Source: Candidatus Nomurabacteria bacterium (GTDB lineage: Bacteria; Patescibacteriota; Saccharimonadia; Saccharimonadales; CAIOMD01). From it: a DNA stretch of 64,000 bases. This document shows, piece by piece, positions 3,178 through 57,194 of the stretch. The position numbers and the translations under genes were made by a program. Location of the stretch: NCBI GenBank assembly GCA_020631975.1, contig JACKGO010000003.1, positions 106,973-170,972 of the forward strand, written 5' to 3'. The notes under the pieces are model-generated. The model did not search any database and had not been told where the DNA came from. It saw only the letters and a list, made by a program, of their open reading frames with translations. Each line of letters begins with the position of its first letter. Positions within the stretch are counted from its first letter, which is position 1.

Positions 3178-3219
3178 ATATATACAATGCTTATGTTTTT
3201 ATAGTACCACGTTCTGCGT

Positions 3220-4521
3220 TTAGTCGCTGTCTTGTAAAGCTTCTACACCAGGGAGAGTATGCCCAGCCATGAGCTCTAAGCTCGCTCCACCACCTGTAGA
3301 TACGTGTCCAAGTTGCTCGCGTAATCCACTTATAGATTCTACATAGCCTACCGTATCACCGCCTCCTACAATGGTAAATGGTACGTTTTTGTCACCAGCA
3401 TGTTGGCCAATGAAGCCTTCTGTGATTACGCGCGTCCCGTGGCTAAACGGGTCAGCTGCGCCGTGTAAGCCACGAATCTCTGTCATGCCAGCTGTGCCAT
3501 TCCATATAGCAGTGTGCGCTTGCGATAGCGCACCTTTTATTGCACTCGCTGTCATTGGGCCTATGTCTAAAATCCATTCATCAGCCGCAACGCTGTAGGC
3601 ATGTTTTGAAGGTTTTTTCGGATACTGTGAAATATCTGCCCATGTATGATTATCTATATCAACAACCCTGGTTTGGTGGGTATTTTCTTTTCCTTTTGCC
3701 ACAACAACGTCTTGGGGTATATAAAACGTAAAGCGCTCTTTTTTCATTCTACTATATGCTTTTTGCAGGAGTTCTTTGGCGGTATGCACAGCGTCTTTTT
3801 CTACCAAACTACTACCAACGGCTACATCTTCTGCGACTAAAAAGGTATTCGCCATGGCACCAACAACCGCTATATAATCTGCTGAATCTATAAATGTGTT
3901 TAACAAATCTATTTTGTCGGATATTTTTGCGCCACCAATCACAATGGCCAGTGGCTTTTTGGGTGTATGCATTGCATTGGTTATTGTGTCTACTTCTTTT
4001 GCCAGTAGTAATCCTGCAACGCTCGGCAGATACCGAGTAATAGCATCTGTGCTAGCATGAGCACGATGCACAACACCAAAGCCTTCTTGTACAAATACAT
4101 CACAACCTTTGGCGAGCTTTTTAGCAAAGTCAGGGTCGTTTGCTTCCTCTTCTGGGTAGTAACGTAGGTTTTCTAGTAGTAAAACATCACCCGGTTGTAG
4201 CTCTTTAATTTTGTGTTTTGCGTCTGCGCTAATACAATCATCAGCAAAGAGCACTGTGGTGTGCAATAAATCATCAAGACGATGAGCAATAGGCGCAAGG
4301 CTGCAGGCAACGTCTTGTTTACTAGTCGGCCTTCCAAGATGAGAAATCAGCACCACCTTGGCGCCAGAGCTCCGTAGGTGCTCTATAGTGGGCAAAGCTT
4401 TACGAATTCGATAATCGTCTGTAATAACACCTAGATCATTGATGGGCACATTAAAATCAACCCGAACAAGCACTGTTTTGTTGGCTACATCTGTTTGAAA
4501 TATAGTTTTTTTGCGAAACAT
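3220..4521 (-). CDS. pgk: Phosphoglycerate kinase
   Basis: VLVRVDFNVP, SHLGRP and GGGDT motifs. At 433 aa it is somewhat longer than typical, with an apparent internal insertion. Confidence 0.95.
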   Translation of the reverse strand: MFRKKTIFQTDVANKTVLVRVDFNVPINDLGVITDDYRIRKALPTIEHLRSSGAKVVLISHLGRPTSKQDVACSLAPIAHRLDDLLHTTVLFADDCISADAKHKIKELQPGDVLLLENLRYYPEEEANDPDFAKKLAKGCDVFVQEGFGVVHRAHASTDAITRYLPSVAGLLLAKEVDTITNAMHTPKKPLAIVIGGAKISDKIDLLNTFIDSADYIAVVGAMANTFLVAEDVAVGSSLVEKDAVHTAKELLQKAYSRMKKERFTFYIPQDVVVAKGKENTHQTRVVDIDNHTWADISQYPKKPSKHAYSVAADEWILDIGPMTASAIKGALSQAHTAIWNGTAGMTEIRGLHGAADPFSHGTRVITEGFIGQHAGDKNVPFTIVGGGDTVGYVESISGLREQLGHVSTGGGASLELMAGHTLPGVEALQDSD

Positions 4522-12841: not shown

Positions 12842-12858
12842 GGTCCCGTCGTCTAACG
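12842..12858 (+). repeat. Perfect copy of tRNA-Glu positions 1-17 (acceptor 5' strand to D-loop)
   Basis: GGTCCCGTCGTCTAACG is identical to 13037-13053. Confidence 0.9.
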
Positions 12859-13036
12859 TGAGAGTAGCCAGTAGGCTGCTCGCAAGAAAACCTTCCGATG
12901 AAAACTTGTTTTCAGTAGCGAAGTTTTGAGGCCACAGGATGTGGCAGGACATCAGTTTGCAAAGATGTTGTGACGGGCTCGCTAAAAGTGAGTCGATTCA
13001 GAATCGAACCCAGCTGCAGTATAATTAAGCTTACAT
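12859..13036 (+). other. Hairpin-rich non-coding segment (family member A5) between the tRNA-Glu 5' fragment and the intact tRNA-Glu; candidate structured RNA or miniature integrated element
   Basis: Hairpins: GTAGCC-AGTA-GGCTGC, TGAAAAC-TT-GTTTTCA (12899-12914), GCCAC-AGGAT-GTGGC, and GGCTCGC-TAAAA-GTGAGTC. About 33/41 nt match 28686-28726. GGGCTCGC..AGTGAGTCGA is shared with 51118-51140. It contains AGGACATCAG (12946-12955), which equals tRNA-Glu positions 21-30. It ends with TATAAT at 13020-13025. Confidence 0.6.
13020..13025 (+). promoter_or_regulatory. Candidate -10 box (TATAAT) for tRNA-Glu
   Basis: A consensus TATAAT lies 11 nt upstream of tRNA position 1. The same arrangement is seen upstream of tRNA-Lys, tRNA-Arg(TCG) and tRNA-His. 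Confidence 0.4.
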
Positions 13037-13111: not shown

Positions 13112-13180
13112 ATAAAAATACCTCAGCTAGTCTGGGTGTTTTTATTGGTTGGTTGTCAACGGCAACCGGACACCTGTAAA

Positions 13181-13234
13181 GGGTTCAGATAATCCCCCTA
13201 AGCAAAGCGACAAACGGGCGGATTATACCCTAGT
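13181..13234 (+). other. Conserved junction module preceding the duplicated tRNA-Glu 3' end
   Basis: GGGTTCAGATAAT is followed by a long hairpin (ATAATCCCCC ... GGGCGGATTAT). The same 13-mer plus an equivalent hairpin (ATAATTT ... AAATTAT) sits before the duplicated tRNA-Arg 3' end at 50753-50790. Confidence 0.45.
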
Positions 13235-13254
13235 ATTCCCCTCGGGATCACCAA
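13235..13254 (+). repeat. Perfect copy of the tRNA-Glu 3' end (T-loop A58 to CCA plus 1 nt); att-type direct repeat
   Basis: ATTCCCCTCGGGATCACCAA is identical to 13093-13112. Confidence 0.9.
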
Positions 13255-28541: not shown

Positions 28542-28664
28542 ATATCCTCCTCTTTTAATATTAGTATTATACGCCTAGCGCCATGTAAATAGACAGTTTA
28601 CATTTTGTAATTGATATGCAATAATTACCCCTGTTGTTTTTTAACACTCAACATATCTACAACA

Positions 28665-28805
28665 GGTCTGTAGCTCAGCTGGTTACCTTGCGATAAAAAC
28701 TTGTTTTCAATCGAGAAGTTCAGGGGTCGCAGAATGTACCTTGCCTCTTCCAAGCTCCGCTCGCTATAAAGATTGAATAGCACTTTTAGATATAATAGAT
28801 ACTAT
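28665..28805 (+). other. tRNA-like 5' fragment plus hairpin-rich segment (family member B5) directly upstream of tRNA-Lys
   Basis: At 28665-28685, GGTCTGTAGCTCAGCTGGTTA; its 16 nt at 28670-28685 equal tRNA-Lys 28812-28827. At 28686-28726, CCTTGCGATAAAAACTTGTTTTCAATCGAGAAGTTCAGGGG is about 80% identical to 12891-12931. CTTGCCTCTTCCAAG resembles the tRNA-Lys anticodon arm. GCTCGCTATAAAGATTGAAT resembles 12977-13000. TATAAT at 28791-28796. Confidence 0.6.
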
Positions 28806-28882
28806 GGGCCAGTAGCTCAGCTGGTTAGAGCACCTGCCTCTTAAGCAGGGTGTCGAGGGTTCGAGCCCCTCCTGGCCCTCCA
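28806..28882 (+). tRNA. tRNA-Lys (anticodon CTT), CCA encoded
   Basis: Acceptor GGGCCAG/CTGGCCC, anticodon stem CCTGC/GCAGG, loop CTCTTAA, T-arm GAGGG-TTCGAGC-CCCTC. 77 nt. Confidence 0.93.
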
Positions 28883-40741: not shown

Positions 40742-40818
40742 GCACCCGTAGCTCAGCGGATTAGAGTACTTGGCTTCGAACCAAGGGGTCGCAGGTTCGA
40801 ATCCTGCCGGGTGTACCA
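40742..40818 (+). tRNA. tRNA-Arg (anticodon TCG), CCA encoded
   Basis: Acceptor GCACCCG/CGGGTGT (G1-U72), anticodon stem CTTGG/CCAAG, loop CTTCGAA, T-arm GCAGG-TTCGAAT-CCTGC. 77 nt. TATAAT lies upstream. Confidence 0.9.
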
Positions 40819-41015
40819 CGTCTATATTTAAGGGCTTCTCTATAGAAGTCTTTTTTTTGTAACTTAGTACGTCAATTTCGACAATAGATAGAAAATACGG
40901 CTCGTATATAACTCAGCGTTTTGCTTCAAATAATTTCATGGTGATAATTTTGTACATAGCCGTTTTTCATGTTTTTATAGTTGTAATATTTTTGATTTTG
41001 TGTTATAGTAATTAT

Positions 41016-49105: not shown

Positions 49106-49180
49106 GCGGGATTCGTATAACGGCTAATATATAAGTTTTCCAAACTTAGGACGGGAGTTCGATTCTCCCATCCCGCACCA
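49106..49180 (+). tRNA. tRNA-Gly (anticodon TCC), CCA encoded
   Basis: Acceptor GCGGGAT/ATCCCGC, anticodon stem TAAGT/ACTTA, loop TTTCCAA, T-arm GGGAG-TTCGATT-CTCCC. 75 nt. Confidence 0.92.
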
Positions 49181-49201
49181 CATAGGAATAAACCCAAGCA
49201 C

Positions 49202-49277
49202 GCCCCGGTAGCTCAGTGGATAGAGCAAGTGGGTTCTAACCATTAGGTCGGGGGTTCGAATCCCTCCCGGGGTGCCA
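49202..49277 (+). tRNA. tRNA-Arg (anticodon TCT), CCA encoded
   Basis: Acceptor GCCCCGG/CCGGGGT, anticodon stem AGTGG/CCATT, loop GTTCTAA, T-arm GGGGG-TTCGAAT-CCCTC. 76 nt. Confidence 0.9.
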
Positions 49278-49282
49278 AGCAT

Positions 49283-49307
49283 AAGCGTTATCGAAAGATA
49301 GCGTTTT
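49283..49307. terminator. Stem-loop terminator shared by tRNA-Arg and the convergent NUDIX gene
   Basis: AAGCGTTATC-GAAA-GATAGCGTTT followed by a T-run. A near-copy lies at 51165-51191. Confidence 0.65.
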
Positions 49308-49312
49308 ATATA

Positions 49313-49780
49313 TTATTTTACAATGCCTTTATCAAGAGCCACTTGATAAGATTTCCAAAACTGAGAATGTAGTGGGCTGGGTAGCGTTTTACTAGTGAAC
49401 CAACCGATTTCTTCAATCTTGTCAGGTTCACCAATCTTGACTTTGTCTGGGTCAACTTGTACCGCATGCATTATAGCAACCCAGTGTGTTTTTATTGATT
49501 TATTTACTCTAAATGCATCGTAAACTGTCAGAAAGTCAATCGACATCGGTATTACACAAAGCTCTTCGAAAATTTCTCTGCTTACAGCTTCTGAGATTGA
49601 TTCACCAAATTCTATAGCGCCCCCACCAACATCCCATTTACCATTTTCATCTCGGGCTCGTTGGCCTCGTTTTTGCAACAACACTCTACCTTGACCGTCG
49701 TGCACTACAAAACTAGCCGAAATGCCGATATAGTCAACACCTCTTTTTATATCGTTTATATCATCTATTGAACAGTTCAT
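49313..49780 (-). CDS. NUDIX hydrolase
   Basis: Nudix box GGGAIEFGESISEAVSREIFEELC. Confidence 0.88.
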   Translation of the reverse strand: MNCSIDDINDIKRGVDYIGISASFVVHDGQGRVLLQKRGQRARDENGKWDVGGGAIEFGESISEAVSREIFEELCVIPMSIDFLTVYDAFRVNKSIKTHWVAIMHAVQVDPDKVKIGEPDKIEEIGWFTSKTLPSPLHSQFWKSYQVALDKGIVK

Positions 49781-49861
49781 TTGTAATATTATAACTAATA
49801 TATAGCCATACTTTGCATAAAGGTTTGTATAATTTAATTATTTTAATGATATTATTACTTA

Positions 49862-50658
49862 ATGAAAAGATTCGAAGCATTACTATCTGATGCTGATGGT
49901 ACATTAATCGACAGTGTTCCTCTTATTAAGCATGGGCAATACGAAACAGCTATTACTTTCTTAAAAGCACACGGCTTAGCTGATAGCGATTTACCGGATT
50001 TTCCAACATACGAAACGGCTCTAAATCAAACCGTTGGGGGTAGCGCTAGAGATACGCTGGAACGGACAGTCAGAATGCTTTATTCGGACAGAGAGCATCA
50101 TATAAATGGAGCTGATTTTGATGTTTTACATAATATGCTAAACCCTGTGCAAGATAGGATTGCACCGGGTATATAAGAGCATATCCTGGCCTACAGTTAC
50201 TTCTAAAGAATCTCGGTACACACAGTTTAAAACTTGCAATTTTTACAAGCGGAACACCGCATCATGTAGTAAGAAATATGGGTATAGCTCTGCCAGAACT
50301 TGGGCTTACCAAACTATTTAAAGATGAAACTATATCTGACCGTGAAAAACTAGTACATTTTGAAAAAGAAGTAGAAAAATATTATAGAATTCCTATTTTT
50401 ACTGTTGTAACTATAGAAGATACAAAAGAACCTAAACCAGATCCAGAAGGCTTGCAGATAGCTATGAAAAGATTGAGCGTAGAGCCAAATGATTGTGCCA
50501 TGCTTGGTGATCATAAGGCCGATATGCAAGCAGGATTTAATGCAACTGTGCCAATTAGGATTGGTATAACTCATGGCTTTGACGATAAAGAAACACTGGA
50601 AGAAGCTAAAGCTACTGAGATAGTTACTAACCTTAGCGACATAAAGTTAGAGTCCTAA
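49862..50658 (+). pseudogene. HAD-superfamily hydrolase interrupted by a frameshift
   Basis: ORF 49862-50176 carries motif I (DADGTLIDS). The frame of ORF 50278-50658 extends upstream as AYPGLQLLLKNLGTHSLKLAIFTSGT (motif II) and carries GDHKADMQAG (motif IV). The frames switch near 50165-50185. Confidence 0.7.
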
Positions 50659-50752
50659 CTTTGTATACGACAGTGTGCCATATTAAATCATTCACCTTCA
50701 TGGTGGATTTTTTAATATGACGTCGCTGAAAGCGAATTGAACCCCCCAAGGA

Positions 50753-50843
50753 GGGTTCAGATAATTTGAGTAGTTTACGAAAATTATATGATGAAACCGA
50801 ATTTGCCATTCCATAAATAAAGGCAAATCTGGCTTGAAGCTAT
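50753..50843 (+). other. Junction module preceding the duplicated tRNA-Arg 3' end
   Basis: GGGTTCAGATAAT (50753-50765) plus the hairpin ATAATTT...AAATTAT, then the hairpin TTTGCC...GGCAAA. It parallels 13181-13234. Confidence 0.45.
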
Positions 50844-50863
50844 AATCCCTCCCGGGGTGCCAA
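50844..50863 (+). repeat. Perfect copy of the tRNA-Arg(TCT) 3' end (T-loop A58 to CCA plus 1 nt); att-type direct repeat
   Basis: AATCCCTCCCGGGGTGCCAA is identical to 49259-49278. Confidence 0.9.
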
Positions 50864-50898
50864 TTTATGAAACTACCTTTTATGGTAGTTTTTTAAAT

Positions 50899-51164
50899 TG
50901 ATTCCGAGATAATTCGTACACTCGACCGTTGGTCGGGTGAAAACTGCCTGTGGCAGTTTGCAAGGCCGGAAACTGATTTAAAGCTATGCTTTAAGTAAGT
51001 TGAGGCGGGGTCGCAACCGATTGGCAGCTTGCTGTCAGTAGGATTGTGCCGAGAATTGCCGGTGGCAATTCGCAAGGAAACAAACACTTGAAAACTATGT
51101 TTTCAAAGCTGTTTTTTCGGGCTCGCCGGAAGTGAGTCGAAATTCCTGCCGGGTTACAAAGCAT
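50899..51164 (+). other. Hairpin-rich non-coding segment (family member C5) ending in a decayed tRNA-Arg 3' end
   Basis: Perfect 7-8 bp hairpins with 3-nt loops at 50941-50959, 50978-50994, 51053-51071 and 51088-51106. The unit hairpin-YGCAAGG-AAAC occurs twice. TTGAAAAC-TAT-GTTTTCAA and GGGCTCGCCGGAAGTGAGTCGA are shared with 12899-12998. GTCGAAATTCCTGCCGGGTTACA aligns to GTTCGAATCCCTCCCGGGGTGCCA. Confidence 0.6.
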
Positions 51165-51191
51165 AAGCGTTATCGTAAGATAACGTTTTTT
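51165..51191 (+). terminator. Terminator stem-loop, paralogue of 49283-49307
   Basis: AAGCGTTATC-GTAA-GATAACGTTT followed by T-run. One G-to-A change converts a wobble pair into a Watson-Crick pair. Confidence 0.6.
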
Positions 51192-51210
51192 ATTTGGTAT
51201 AATTAATTTC

Positions 51211-52131: not shown

Positions 52132-52209
52132 GGCGGATGTAGCTCAGTTGGTTAGAGCGCCTGTTTGTGGCACAGGAGGCCGTGGGTTCAATTCCCATCA
52201 TTCGCCCCA
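52132..52209 (+). tRNA. tRNA-His (anticodon GTG) with encoded G-1, CCA encoded
   Basis: G-1 plus acceptor GCGGATG/CATTCGC, discriminator C73, anticodon stem CCTGT/ACAGG, loop TTGTGGC, T-arm GTGGG-TTCAATT-CCCAT. Confidence 0.9.
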
Positions 52210-52344: not shown

Positions 52345-52360
52345 ATCATTCGCCCCAAGA
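52345..52360 (+). repeat. Copy of the tRNA-His 3' end plus 3 downstream nt
   Basis: ATCATTCGCCCCAAGA is identical to 52197-52212. It is preceded by a T-loop-like GTTCGAAT and followed by its own terminator (ATCCCG-TTTTGA-CGGGAT-TTTT). Confidence 0.8.
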
Positions 52361-56197: not shown

Positions 56198-56269
56198 TGT
56201 GTTACCTTATAAAAAAATATAATTAAGACATAACATATAAAAAACCCGGTGTAACACCGGATCTTTATT

Positions 56270-56346
56270 TGGTCGGGGATAAAGGACTCGAACCTTCGAC
56301 CTCGCGGTCCCAAACCGCGCGCGCTAGCCAACTGCGCCAATCCCCG
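56270..56346 (-). tRNA. tRNA-Pro (anticodon TGG), CCA encoded
   Basis: Reverse complement: acceptor CGGGGAT/ATCCCCG, anticodon stem CGCGG/CCGCG, loop TTTGGGA, T-arm GAAGG-TTCGAGT-CCTTT. 77 nt. Confidence 0.9.
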
Positions 56347-56402
56347 TAAAATAATTTTACTAGGGTAATTATACGCGTAAACAGATGAAAATAAAAGCCT
56401 GC

Positions 56403-57194
56403 TTACAGATAGTACTGAATACGTTCAATACTATCTGCCATAAGGCTACCTGGTGCCGTACCAATAAGTACTGCATTAAACTGAAGTTCTTTTTCTTTGG
56501 CCATTACATTCTTAACCTGTTCGCCCTTCCATCTACGCAGTGCGACATCAACGTCTACACCAAGTGAAGAATTGAGCACACCACACATACCTACGTCAGT
56601 AACGTGCGCTGTGTGCTTTGGTAGTAGCCGAGTATCGGCTGTTGGAATATGCCAATGATCGCCCACCGTAGCAGTAACTTTACCATCTAAGTAATGCCCC
56701 ATCATCACCTTTTCACTCGATAAATCACTATGGATATTTACAATAATGGCATCTGGCATATTTTTTTGAATTTTTGGTAAAAGTGCATCTATGCACATAA
56801 GTGGGTTAATAGTATCTTCATTGTATCCGCGCGGGAAAGTGTAGCCAAGTAACGAAACTATTGCCACCTTTTTTACCCCGTTTTTTATTATTTTATAGTT
56901 ATTTTCTAGTGGACCTTTTACATTCGCAGGTGCAACGACAGTACTGTTCGTGTCTTGTACGAGCTTTACAGTATCTGGACGCTCAAAACTATGGTTACCA
57001 CCACTAAAGCCATCTACGCCGCTTTCTTCTAGCTCTCTGTAATGTTTTAGGCTCATACCTTTACCGTGACTAACGTTTTCTGCTTGAGCAATCACTACAT
57101 CAATTTCACGAGATATCCTTAGCCCCGGCAAAACTTTTGCCAATGCTTTTCTACCGGGTTGCCCCATAACATCACCAATGTACAAGATGTTCAT
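56403..57194 (-). CDS. ymdB: YmdB-like metallophosphoesterase (2',3'-cyclic-nucleotide phosphodiesterase family)
   Basis: NILYIGDVMGQPGR, AQAENVSHGKG and GGNH motifs. It lies directly downstream of rny, as in Bacillus. Confidence 0.8.
   Translation of the reverse strand: MNILYIGDVMGQPGRKALAKVLPGLRISREIDVVIAQAENVSHGKGMSLKHYRELEESGVDGFSGGNHSFERPDTVKLVQDTNSTVVAPANVKGPLENNYKIIKNGVKKVAIVSLLGYTFPRGYNEDTINPLMCIDALLPKIQKNMPDAIIVNIHSDLSSEKVMMGHYLDGKVTATVGDHWHIPTADTRLLPKHTAHVTDVGMCGVLNSSLGVDVDVALRRWKGEQVKNVMAKEKELQFNAVLIGTAPGSLMADSIERIQYYL

Follow-up and report, generated by a model that had tools for sequence, protein, structure and literature searches.

Near the tRNA-Arg(TCT) gene in a 64-kb stretch of DNA from Candidatus Nomurabacteria bacterium (Saccharimonadales) lies a short block of hairpins (50898–51160), which is the subject of this report; the whole stretch is called the window here, its positions serve as coordinates throughout, and its G+C content is low (41%). 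Genes for tRNA-Gly and tRNA-Arg(TCT) occupy 49106–49277 (ARAGORN), followed by a terminator, a Nudix and a HAD-family hydrolase gene, a non-coding mini-cassette of 182 nucleotides (nt) and finally the block, behind which stands a methyltransferase gene (Table 1). In the reading we prefer, to which we would give a probability of roughly 60%, the block is a non-autonomous, gene-less mobile cassette in an array accreted at tRNA-Arg(TCT) ends.

The features described by a first-pass annotation of this DNA – hairpins, a repeated hairpin-YGCAAGG unit, a tRNA-Arg-like end and a terminator – are all where it had placed them. The repeated unit occurs at 50941–50965 and 51053–51077. Perfect 8-base-pair (bp) stems with 3-nt loops lie at 51053–51071 (GAATTGCC GGT GGCAATTC) and 51088–51106 (TTGAAAAC TAT GTTTTCAA), and near-perfect hairpins, also with 3-nt loops, have arms of 11 nt (50938–50962) and 14 nt (50971–51001). 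As a single strand, the block folds at −100.9 kcal/mol (z = −4.96), and none of 200 shuffles did as well. The hairpins are thus real, yet they do not form the loose array first described: they are two cores in tandem, because two adjacent matches were found with a covariance model, R1, built from 69 cores of other loci with the window left out. These matches lie at 51050–51137 (80.9 bits, E = 4e-19) and, as a variant called type 2, at 50938–51022 (48.5 bits, E = 9e-11). The same model matches 12859–12946 upstream of tRNA-Glu (73.6 bits) and 28662–28740 upstream of tRNA-Lys (22.6 bits, with the first hairpin, P2, lost); all four matches are on the plus strand, and no other match in the window had E < 0.05.

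At its right end, the block repeats the end of the tRNA gene: 51136–51191 is 79% identical to 49255–49307 (44 of 56 columns), and this direct repeat of the tRNA end flanks the insert. The earlier estimate of about 80% thus holds. The tRNA-like part is closer to the 3′ end of tRNA-Arg(TCG) at 40796–40818 (73%), with which it shares the exact 11-mer TCCTGCCGGGT, than to that of the adjacent tRNA-Arg(TCT) (64%). The tRNA-Arg(TCG) gene itself lies at 40742–40818 on the plus strand; a minus-strand tRNA-Arg call by ARAGORN at 40761–40831 overlaps this genuine gene and is most likely an artefact of sequence symmetry. A change in the terminator stem had been taken as compensatory, which it is not, because it is a G→A on one side only, turning a T·G wobble into T–A.

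To the left of the cores, GGTCGGG (50931–50937) directly repeats the variable loop and the 5′ strand of the T-stem of tRNA-Arg(TCT). It pairs with the inverted tRNA piece before it as a 7-bp hairpin, CTCGACC GTT GGTCGGG (50921–50937); the inverted T-arm copy is clearer in L005 (GGATTCGAAC), one of the compared loci or strains, which carry labels such as L001–L006, L144, L156 and L157. With GGTCGGG before them and the tRNA-Arg-like segment from T-loop to CCA after them, the cores lie on the same strand as the intact tRNA. ARAGORN finds neither a transfer-messenger RNA nor an additional tRNA in the block. Two minus-strand open reading frames (ORFs) cover it; both lack a Pfam match and overlap the covarying structure described below, so that a coding reading was rejected and the ORFs look spurious, as had been supposed. 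In sum, the earlier view that the block is non-coding and is closed by a displaced tRNA-Arg-like 3′ end and a terminator is supported.

Table 1. Features of the tRNA-Arg(TCT) array and of two sister elements in the window.
Feature	Positions	Strand	Evidence or remark
Intact tRNA-Arg(TCT), anchor of the array	49202–49277	+	ARAGORN; Rfam tRNA, 64 bits
Terminator after tRNA-Arg(TCT)	49278–49307	+	Paralogue of the terminator after the block, 29/31 identical
Cargo: Nudix gene (minus strand) and HAD hydrolase gene (plus strand)	49313–50658	.	ORFs, Pfam
Relic tRNA-Arg 3′ end CAGTGTGCCA, closing the Nudix/HAD segment	50671–50680	+	Strain comparison
Non-coding mini-cassette of 182 nt, second family	50681–50862	+	Sequence and strain comparison
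Palindromic terminator-like hairpin, 17-nt arms	50861–50900	+	Arms include the preceding CCA and the following TGA/TGG
Left part of the hairpin cassette	50898–50937	+	Decayed inverted copy of a tRNA T-arm, then direct tRNA copy
Type-2 core: P2, P3 with CCGGAA...TGAGGC internal loop, P4 with extra hairpin	50938–51049	+	Covariance model R1
Type-1 core: P2 51051–51074, P3 51077–51118, P4 51121–51137	51050–51137	+	Covariance model R1; covariation
tRNA-Arg-like T-loop 3′ half, T-stem 3′ strand, acceptor 3′ strand, decayed CCA (TCGAAATTCCTGCCGGGTTACA)	51137–51158	+	
Rho-independent terminator-like hairpin closing the cassette	51159–51194	+	Just 5′ of the methyltransferase gene
Sister element upstream of tRNA-Glu	12842–13036	+	Covariance model R1, strain comparison
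Degenerate sister element upstream of tRNA-Lys(CTT)	28665–28805	+	Diverged copy of tRNA nt 1–21, then core without P2

The core family and its tRNA hosts

The core belongs to a family that extends well beyond this locus. Motifs common to the block and the segments upstream of tRNA-Glu and tRNA-Lys, which the first-pass annotation had pointed out, are not random: GGGCTCGCnnnAAGTGAGTCGA has two matches there against 0.01 expected, and the covariance model finds the same places. Scanned over one genome per species, GGGCTCGCnnnAAGTGAGTCGA matched nine contigs. Six are from metagenome-assembled genomes of Saccharibacteria/Saccharimonadales, in which the homologous element touches a tRNA or a tRNA-derived fragment, and the same architecture is seen in GGGCTCGCnnnAAGTGAGTCGA-bearing assemblies wherever the sequence suffices (L014 and L015 end at a locus or contig edge); the other three, from other taxa, were read as chance matches (coding-like context, no tRNA, no match to the model). 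An independent pattern for P2 was found in at least 120 contigs of metagenomes from sludge, soil, freshwater and host-associated sources, and in its exact form in none of 2.9 million viral contigs. With a motif for the third hairpin, P4, giving a single viral contig, chance-like and without a tRNA, a phage or viral origin was rejected.

No Rfam family accounts for the block. At the gathering thresholds of Rfam 15, the window and 20 loci match tRNA and rRNA only, and at E ≤ 10 the block and one canonical element give only chance-level matches. Full-text literature searches, aimed at Saccharibacteria, Patescibacteria and the candidate phyla radiation, found no paper that describes elements of this sort; the three-hairpin core in pseudo-tRNA loops, its breadth in Saccharibacteria and the gene-less cassettes of 180–300 nt are absent from Rfam and were not found in the searchable literature.

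The fold itself – about 88–112 nt long and typically about 88 nt, with the three hairpins P2, P3 and P4 in succession – is strongly supported by covariation. The 72 distinct cores aligned readily and were analysed with RNAalifold and by direct counting of pairs. P2 has 10 bp, a conserved A·G mismatch and an NGU triloop; P3 has about 17 bp, which begin directly after an invariant GCAAGG and stop just before CGGG; P4 has 7 bp and a GAA-type triloop. Across the 34 pairs of these helices, 95.6% of cells are paired, compared with 74.6% in shuffles and 29–44% in controls with slid partners. Cells with double changes number 482 against 146 in shuffles and fall in 22 of the 34 pairs. One pair in P4 is G·U in 65 of the 72 cores and a second pair in 35 of them, and G·T outnumbers A·C across pairs by 138 to 24; given this excess, the strand that folds is therefore the tRNA-sense strand, as RNA or as single-stranded DNA (ssDNA). 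Type-2 cores, which have CCGGAA...TGAGGC at the base of P3 and the extra hairpin in P4, make up 20 of the 131 pattern matches listed, the type-2 core of the window having 19 homologues in other loci.

The association of cores with tRNAs, and their shared orientation, is equally plain. Among the 131 cores listed, 91 have a same-strand tRNA within 450 nt, the element lying upstream in 47 cases and downstream in 44; none has an opposite-strand tRNA within that distance, and the neighbours comprise 29 tRNA species among the matches listed. Cores beside a tRNA sit in a partial copy of that tRNA, which the intact gene adjoins. The 5′ part retained in the copy is 17, 23–26, 37–38, 50–55 or 61–65 nt long and so stops in the D-loop, in the D-arm/26 region, in the anticodon loop or in the T-loop (the 61–65-nt group being the T-loop of tRNAs with long variable arms), with insertion points at D-loop 17/18, D-arm 24–26, anticodon loop 37/38 and T-loop 54/55. 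The host loop lacks 1–3 nt at the insertion. Of 126 cores, 125 have G at position −2 of the left flank and 123 have T at position −1. Removing the core in silico gives a tRNA recognisable to ARAGORN in only 2 of 101 cases, so the cores are not introns of working tRNAs.

The copied tRNA pieces have sharp limits. Upstream-type copies are identical to the tRNA at 11.8 of 12 positions from +1 and at 4.1 of 12 just before it, and downstream-type copies at 11.4 of 12 up to the CCA and at 5.9 of 12 directly after. The downstream type is uniform: some 77 nt separate tRNA and core, made up of a terminator hairpin with CCA...TGG in its arms, an inverted T-arm copy and then, in direct orientation, the variable loop with the 5′ strand of the T-stem. 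The palindromic terminator is the standard left end among these cassettes, and a copy of the tRNA 3′ end stands where the window has it. The inverted T-arm copy between both tRNA copies was found in 22 of 46 downstream-type loci, compared with none of 46 shuffles (local score ≥10). Cores also occur in hairpin loops with no tRNA nearby, inside other cores and in tandem arrays; in L024 and L126 they lie in the 16S–23S rRNA spacer, directly after tRNA-Ala, with terminator-like hairpins.

In all, four cores at three tRNAs lie in the window, where tRNA ends also bear three or more additional mini-cassettes without genes. The element at tRNA-Glu starts with nt 1–17 of that tRNA (12842–12858) and a full core (12859–12946), and continues with a remnant of tRNA nt 21–30 and the 3′ half of a second core (12947–12996), followed by a palindrome of the T-loop and a promoter (TATAAT). 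Gene-less mini-cassettes of a second family, at tRNA 3′ ends, are represented at tRNA-Arg (50681–50862) and tRNA-Glu (13112–13253): a palindromic terminator right after the CCA, a T-arm-like GGGTTCAGATAAT segment and a final 18–19-nt copy of the tRNA 3′ end; the position of the tRNA-Arg member varies among strains. At tRNA-His, the 3′ end ATCATTCGCCCCA, followed by AGA (52197–52209), recurs at 52345–52357 with about 135 non-coding nt between, another small insertion at a tRNA 3′ end.

Rearrangement between strains

The limits of the mobile unit emerge from comparing copies. Pairwise homology spans (G)TGAGA to the end of P4, where it gives way to unrelated flanks. For 43 of 57 cores, the most similar core stands at another tRNA, and the identity reaches 97%. 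Cores are nested in L139, L132, L029 and L048. Their ends (TGAGA... and ...GTGRC) form no terminal inverted repeats, and the nested insertions have no target-site duplication; P2 and P4 lie at opposite ends of the core, with strand-specific wobble pairs and no duplication. The tRNA-derived repeats vary in length from 17 to about 65 nt.

Cassettes, for their part, are dispensable and change places between strains that encode an identical neighbouring protein, the basis of comparison at this level. At tRNA-Glu, L144 lacks exactly 195 nt – one of two 17-nt repeats and the intervening 178 nt – and is otherwise identical. L005 lacks the type-2 core of the block. L001–L003 carry a core-bearing pseudo-tRNA-Pro, for which the window and L004 have the empty site. 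This pseudogene (10995–11399 in L001, and also in L003, corresponding to 56240–56470 on the minus strand of the window) lies upstream of tRNA-Pro(TGG) and consists of nt 1–53, changed mainly in the anticodon loop, then a core with the type-2 CCGGAAAC...TGAGGC and a promoter-like segment.

At tRNA-Arg(TCT) itself, at least three separable units can be told apart, each of which ends in a tRNA-Arg-like 3′ end: the 182-nt cassette with its perfect repeat (A), the hairpin cassette (B) and the terminator–Nudix–HAD–CAGTGTGCCA segment (C). Their order is tRNA–A–B–C–B′ in L001 and tRNA–C–A–B′ in the window. The second hairpin cassette of L001, made up of terminator, left part, core, tRNA-like end and terminator, thus stands with the 182-nt cassette directly after the tRNA and before the Nudix gene, and is followed by a terminator that matches 49278–49307; this arrangement of units explains why the terminators after the tRNA and after the block are paralogous. 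In the window, the Nudix/HAD segment and the 182-nt cassette now separate the hairpin cassette from the tRNA by about 1.6 kb. The 182-nt cassette terminates in an 18-nt perfect copy of the tRNA-Arg(TCT) 3′ end (50845–50862, or 19 nt if 50863 is counted) and is missing from this place in L001–L004, where the CAGTGTGCCA relic lies immediately 5′ of the palindromic terminator.

These comparisons refine the earlier account. Accretion at one tRNA was right in outline; the two successive insertions once proposed become at least three units that vary in order and copy number. The perfect repeat does not bound the Nudix/HAD island and belongs instead to the separate 182-nt mini-cassette, absent there from four sister strains. 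The block had been called the older insertion, a reading of it as an old scar that is too narrow; with a second copy of the cassette directly beside the tRNA in L001, it need not be the older one.

Two side observations concern the cargo. The HAD-family gene (49862–50658) is split by a frameshift into ORFs of 104 and 126 amino acids in the window and is unbroken, at 265 amino acids, in the sister strains L001–L003 and L006. Downstream of tRNA-Lys(CTT) (orthologous to 28806–28882), where the window has a different gene, L156 and L157 carry aminoglycoside-phosphotransferase-like, methyltransferase and PNPOx genes, together with a pair of relic tRNA-Lys 3′ ends and a structured non-coding segment of yet another, third kind.

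ORF and Pfam analysis found no recombinase gene between 49278 and 51194, and when 816 ORFs of 118 loci were clustered all against all, only housekeeping families emerged, with no ORF consistently accompanying cores. No intI gene was seen in the clustered loci, and ORF clustering of the 118 loci revealed no recurrent small HUH-like family, no profile search having been made. Large serine recombinase homologues occur in 5 of about 118 loci. In L094, such a gene (46–1506) lies directly against a junction of tRNA-Gln with a relic 3′ end and a core; in L087, another (3196–4476) lies at a core 3′ junction, some 450 nt downstream from a core in which the tRNA 3′ copy is missing. Both proteins have Resolvase, Recombinase and zinc-ribbon domains and are candidate trans-acting enzymes.

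Comparison with known systems

The classical duplication of attachment (att) sites at tRNA genes was reportedly described by Williams in 2002. In tycheposon-type islands, integrative elements accrete in tandem at tRNA genes (bioRxiv 10.1101/2020.12.28.424599). As in such islands, insertions here stack at one tRNA, and part of the tRNA end is repeated at the end of every unit; older units are displaced outward by newer ones, the tRNA-proximal content differs among close strains, and cargo without an integrase occurs. Unlike them, the units described here are as small as 180–300 nt and gene-less, are also found at the 5′ side of the tRNA, with a promoter from the insert, and have a covarying three-hairpin core in a pseudo T-arm or D-arm, to which no integrase family is tied.

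Other likenesses are with small elements mobilised by someone else’s enzyme. Repetitive extragenic palindromes and bacterial interspersed mosaic elements (REP/BIME), with their RAYT transposases, and the palindrome-associated elements derived from IS200/IS605 (PATEs) are non-autonomous structured repeats mobilised in trans. The core resembles them in being short, non-coding and multi-copy, with strand-specific covarying hairpins, in having neither terminal inverted repeats nor target duplication, and in its nested and tandem copies. It differs in its 88 nt, three hairpins and conserved junctions, and in its targets, which are tRNA-like hairpin loops with 1–3 nt replaced, always coupled to a partial tRNA duplicate; moreover, no HUH transposase turned up here, no genome-wide search having been made. 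With miniature inverted-repeat transposable elements (MITEs), the family shares small size, lack of autonomy, many copies and presence/absence polymorphism, although the core has neither the terminal inverted repeats nor the fixed-length target-site duplication that define a MITE.

Introns in tRNA genes offer a third comparison. Archaeal tRNAs have mobile bulge-helix-bulge introns at non-canonical positions. In Patescibacteria, the phylum to which the present elements also belong, true group I introns lie at position 35/36 of tRNA genes (PMC13011429). The cores, too, are structured inserts within tRNA sequence, including non-canonical D- and T-arm positions, and their nesting recalls twintrons; unlike tRNA introns, they measure about 88 nt, and their hosts are partial pseudogenes beside an intact gene. 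A group I intron was rejected, there being no match to Rfam Intron_gpI and a restored tRNA in 2 of 101 cases only, as was a bulge-helix-bulge intron, since the hosts are truncated at the 5′ or 3′ side beside an intact gene and 1–3 loop nt are missing.

Integron cassettes carry an attC site, a single imperfect palindrome with R′′–L′′...L′–R′ boxes (RYYYAAC...GTTRRRY), and lie near intI and attI. The arrays described here are similar in consisting of small promoter-less, sometimes non-coding units at one primary site, with a structured, strand-specific element at each 3′ end and an order that is shuffled between strains; the primary site, however, is a tRNA end rather than attI beside intI. An attC identity was rejected, as the core consists of three separate hairpins without R′′/R′ boxes at its ends and no intI was seen in the loci. 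Inspection by eye also eliminated, for want of their defining motifs, hammerhead, hairpin, twister and hatchet ribozymes, the K-turn, the T-box, a Cas9 tracrRNA-like tail, group II/III intron ends, the GTTC target of IS91 and the IS110 bridge RNA.

Weighing the explanations

The block has the layout that is standard for the downstream type across Saccharibacteria: in order, palindromic terminator, inverted T-arm remnant, variable loop and 5′ strand of the T-stem copied directly, the core in the place of the T-loop (two cores here), a tRNA copy from the T-loop 3′ half to the CCA, and terminator. If the block is a mobile cassette, as we favour, such units may enter and leave the chromosome by site-specific recombination at the ends of tRNAs, with an integrase supplied in trans acting on them; recombination of this kind is what textbooks expect of integration into tRNA genes and what has been described for tycheposon islands. 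The core itself would move by a different, structure-dependent, enzyme-catalysed reaction on a single strand (ssDNA or RNA), because it has no terminal inverted repeats, causes no duplication, targets loops and occurs in nested copies; insertions would presumably survive only in non-essential tRNA copies. More tentatively, the core of about 88 nt could be a new mobile module that inserts where molecules shaped like tRNA expose single-stranded loops – ssDNA folded from tRNA genes under heavy transcription, or tRNA that is then reverse transcribed – with its own fold, instead of terminal repeats or a protein that it encodes, defining the substrate, and with insertion coupled to copying of the host tRNA, which would yield the direct–inverted–direct pieces within mature tRNA ends.

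Several points weigh against this interpretation. No transposase or integrase is tied to the core family, and the large serine recombinases of L094 and L087 have no homologue in the 64-kb window. As there are neither terminal inverted repeats nor target-site duplications, the core fits no characterised transposition chemistry, and the partial tRNA copies with their inverted T-arm segment (direct–inverted–direct) are not readily derived from any known one. All presence/absence differences, which are unpolarised, could reflect losses between direct repeats, or alleles exchanged through homologous recombination, instead of new insertions. Without the two consensus G·U pairs, the ratio of G·T to A·C falls to 38 to 24, leaving a weak strand asymmetry, and the strong conservation of P2, the junction purines and the G·U pair is also what a functional RNA would be expected to show.

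That the core is indeed a functional structured RNA domain – a tRNA-linked small RNA, or a leader or trailer of tRNA transcription units, which spread because it is useful – is an alternative we consider unlikely, though one to be taken seriously. It might serve in tRNA processing, in sensing or as a decoy, the tRNA-derived flanks acting as a closing helix. The strong covariation, the conserved G·U pair, the invariant junction and loop nucleotides and the constant co-orientation with tRNAs would all follow from it; upstream-type copies necessarily share transcription with the tRNA or use its native promoter, whereas downstream-type copies lie between terminators and have no promoter-like site. 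Cores are found within the 16S–23S spacer, host tRNA fragments are still about 95% identical to the tRNA, and the flanks often form a closing helix, even in some contexts with no tRNA nearby. Yet copies are dispensable among near-identical strains, and truncation, nesting or decay affects many of them, the tRNA-Lys copy without P2 being one example. Several are antisense to flanking ORFs and orientation is mixed away from tRNAs, although the ORF calls are weak, and the presence of several copies per genome at unrelated tRNAs speaks against one dedicated function.

Mobility of the core might instead lie at the RNA level, with a small ribozyme-like or enzyme-assisted insertion into the exposed loops of mature tRNA, followed by reverse transcription and recombination beside the gene, which would leave retro-copies whose limits are the ends of the mature tRNA. 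The insertion points are the three cloverleaf loops, similarity to the tRNA begins exactly at +1 and mostly stops at the CCA, orientation is sense in every case, and the left part starts with TGG, complementary to the tRNA 3′ end in the manner of a primer-binding site. Mature RNA, however, would not carry the promoters and terminators found inside the inserts, the duplication runs through the terminator in some loci, and no reverse transcriptase is linked to the family; together with the rarity of restored tRNAs on core removal (2 of 101) and the 1–3 missing loop nt, this makes such a route improbable.

Of the three options first offered for the hairpins – a structured RNA, attP arms or a MITE-like element – double-stranded binding arms fit least, in view of the covarying stems and the conserved G·U pair. 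According to that explanation, the block would be the attP arm or accessory-factor region of an island, and the gene-less copies would be deletion remnants. It does lie at an island edge beside a displaced tRNA end, where arm sites are expected; large serine recombinase genes adjoin two junctions, and there is good documentation of integrative elements that accrete at tRNAs and leave partial repeats of them, for instance tycheposons (bioRxiv 10.1101/2020.12.28.424599). Binding sites, however, would keep their sequence, whereas the stems covary and keep their pairing, including a conserved wobble pair, so that double-stranded arm sites are very unlikely. Homology between loci is moreover confined to the core, cores are nested in cores and occur away from islands, and the exact P2 pattern is absent from the viral contigs searched. 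As for a unique local scar left by two old insertions, with chance hairpins and no family, it would explain the local repeat structure and nothing further, and is refuted by at least 120 homologue-bearing contigs and by the covariation.

We thus return to the mobile cassette as the preferred reading. Accretion of elements at tRNA genes was already known; the finding made here is real and wider than had at first been supposed. Although the genomes of Saccharibacteria are tiny and streamlined, the 64 kb analysed hold four cores and further mini-cassettes. On the practical side, the elements produce pseudo-tRNA fragments, spurious ORFs and artefacts of assembly and annotation beside tRNAs and in rRNA operons, and they mark entry sites for cargo, such as the Nudix and HAD genes here and the aminoglycoside-phosphotransferase-like gene of sister strains. 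Under any reading, a conserved, covarying structure of 88 nt without an Rfam entry is a new target for the biology of RNA and of mobile DNA: if functional, it would be a new tRNA-linked structured RNA, and if a non-autonomous element, it would show how gene-poor episymbionts shuffle DNA at tRNA landing pads.

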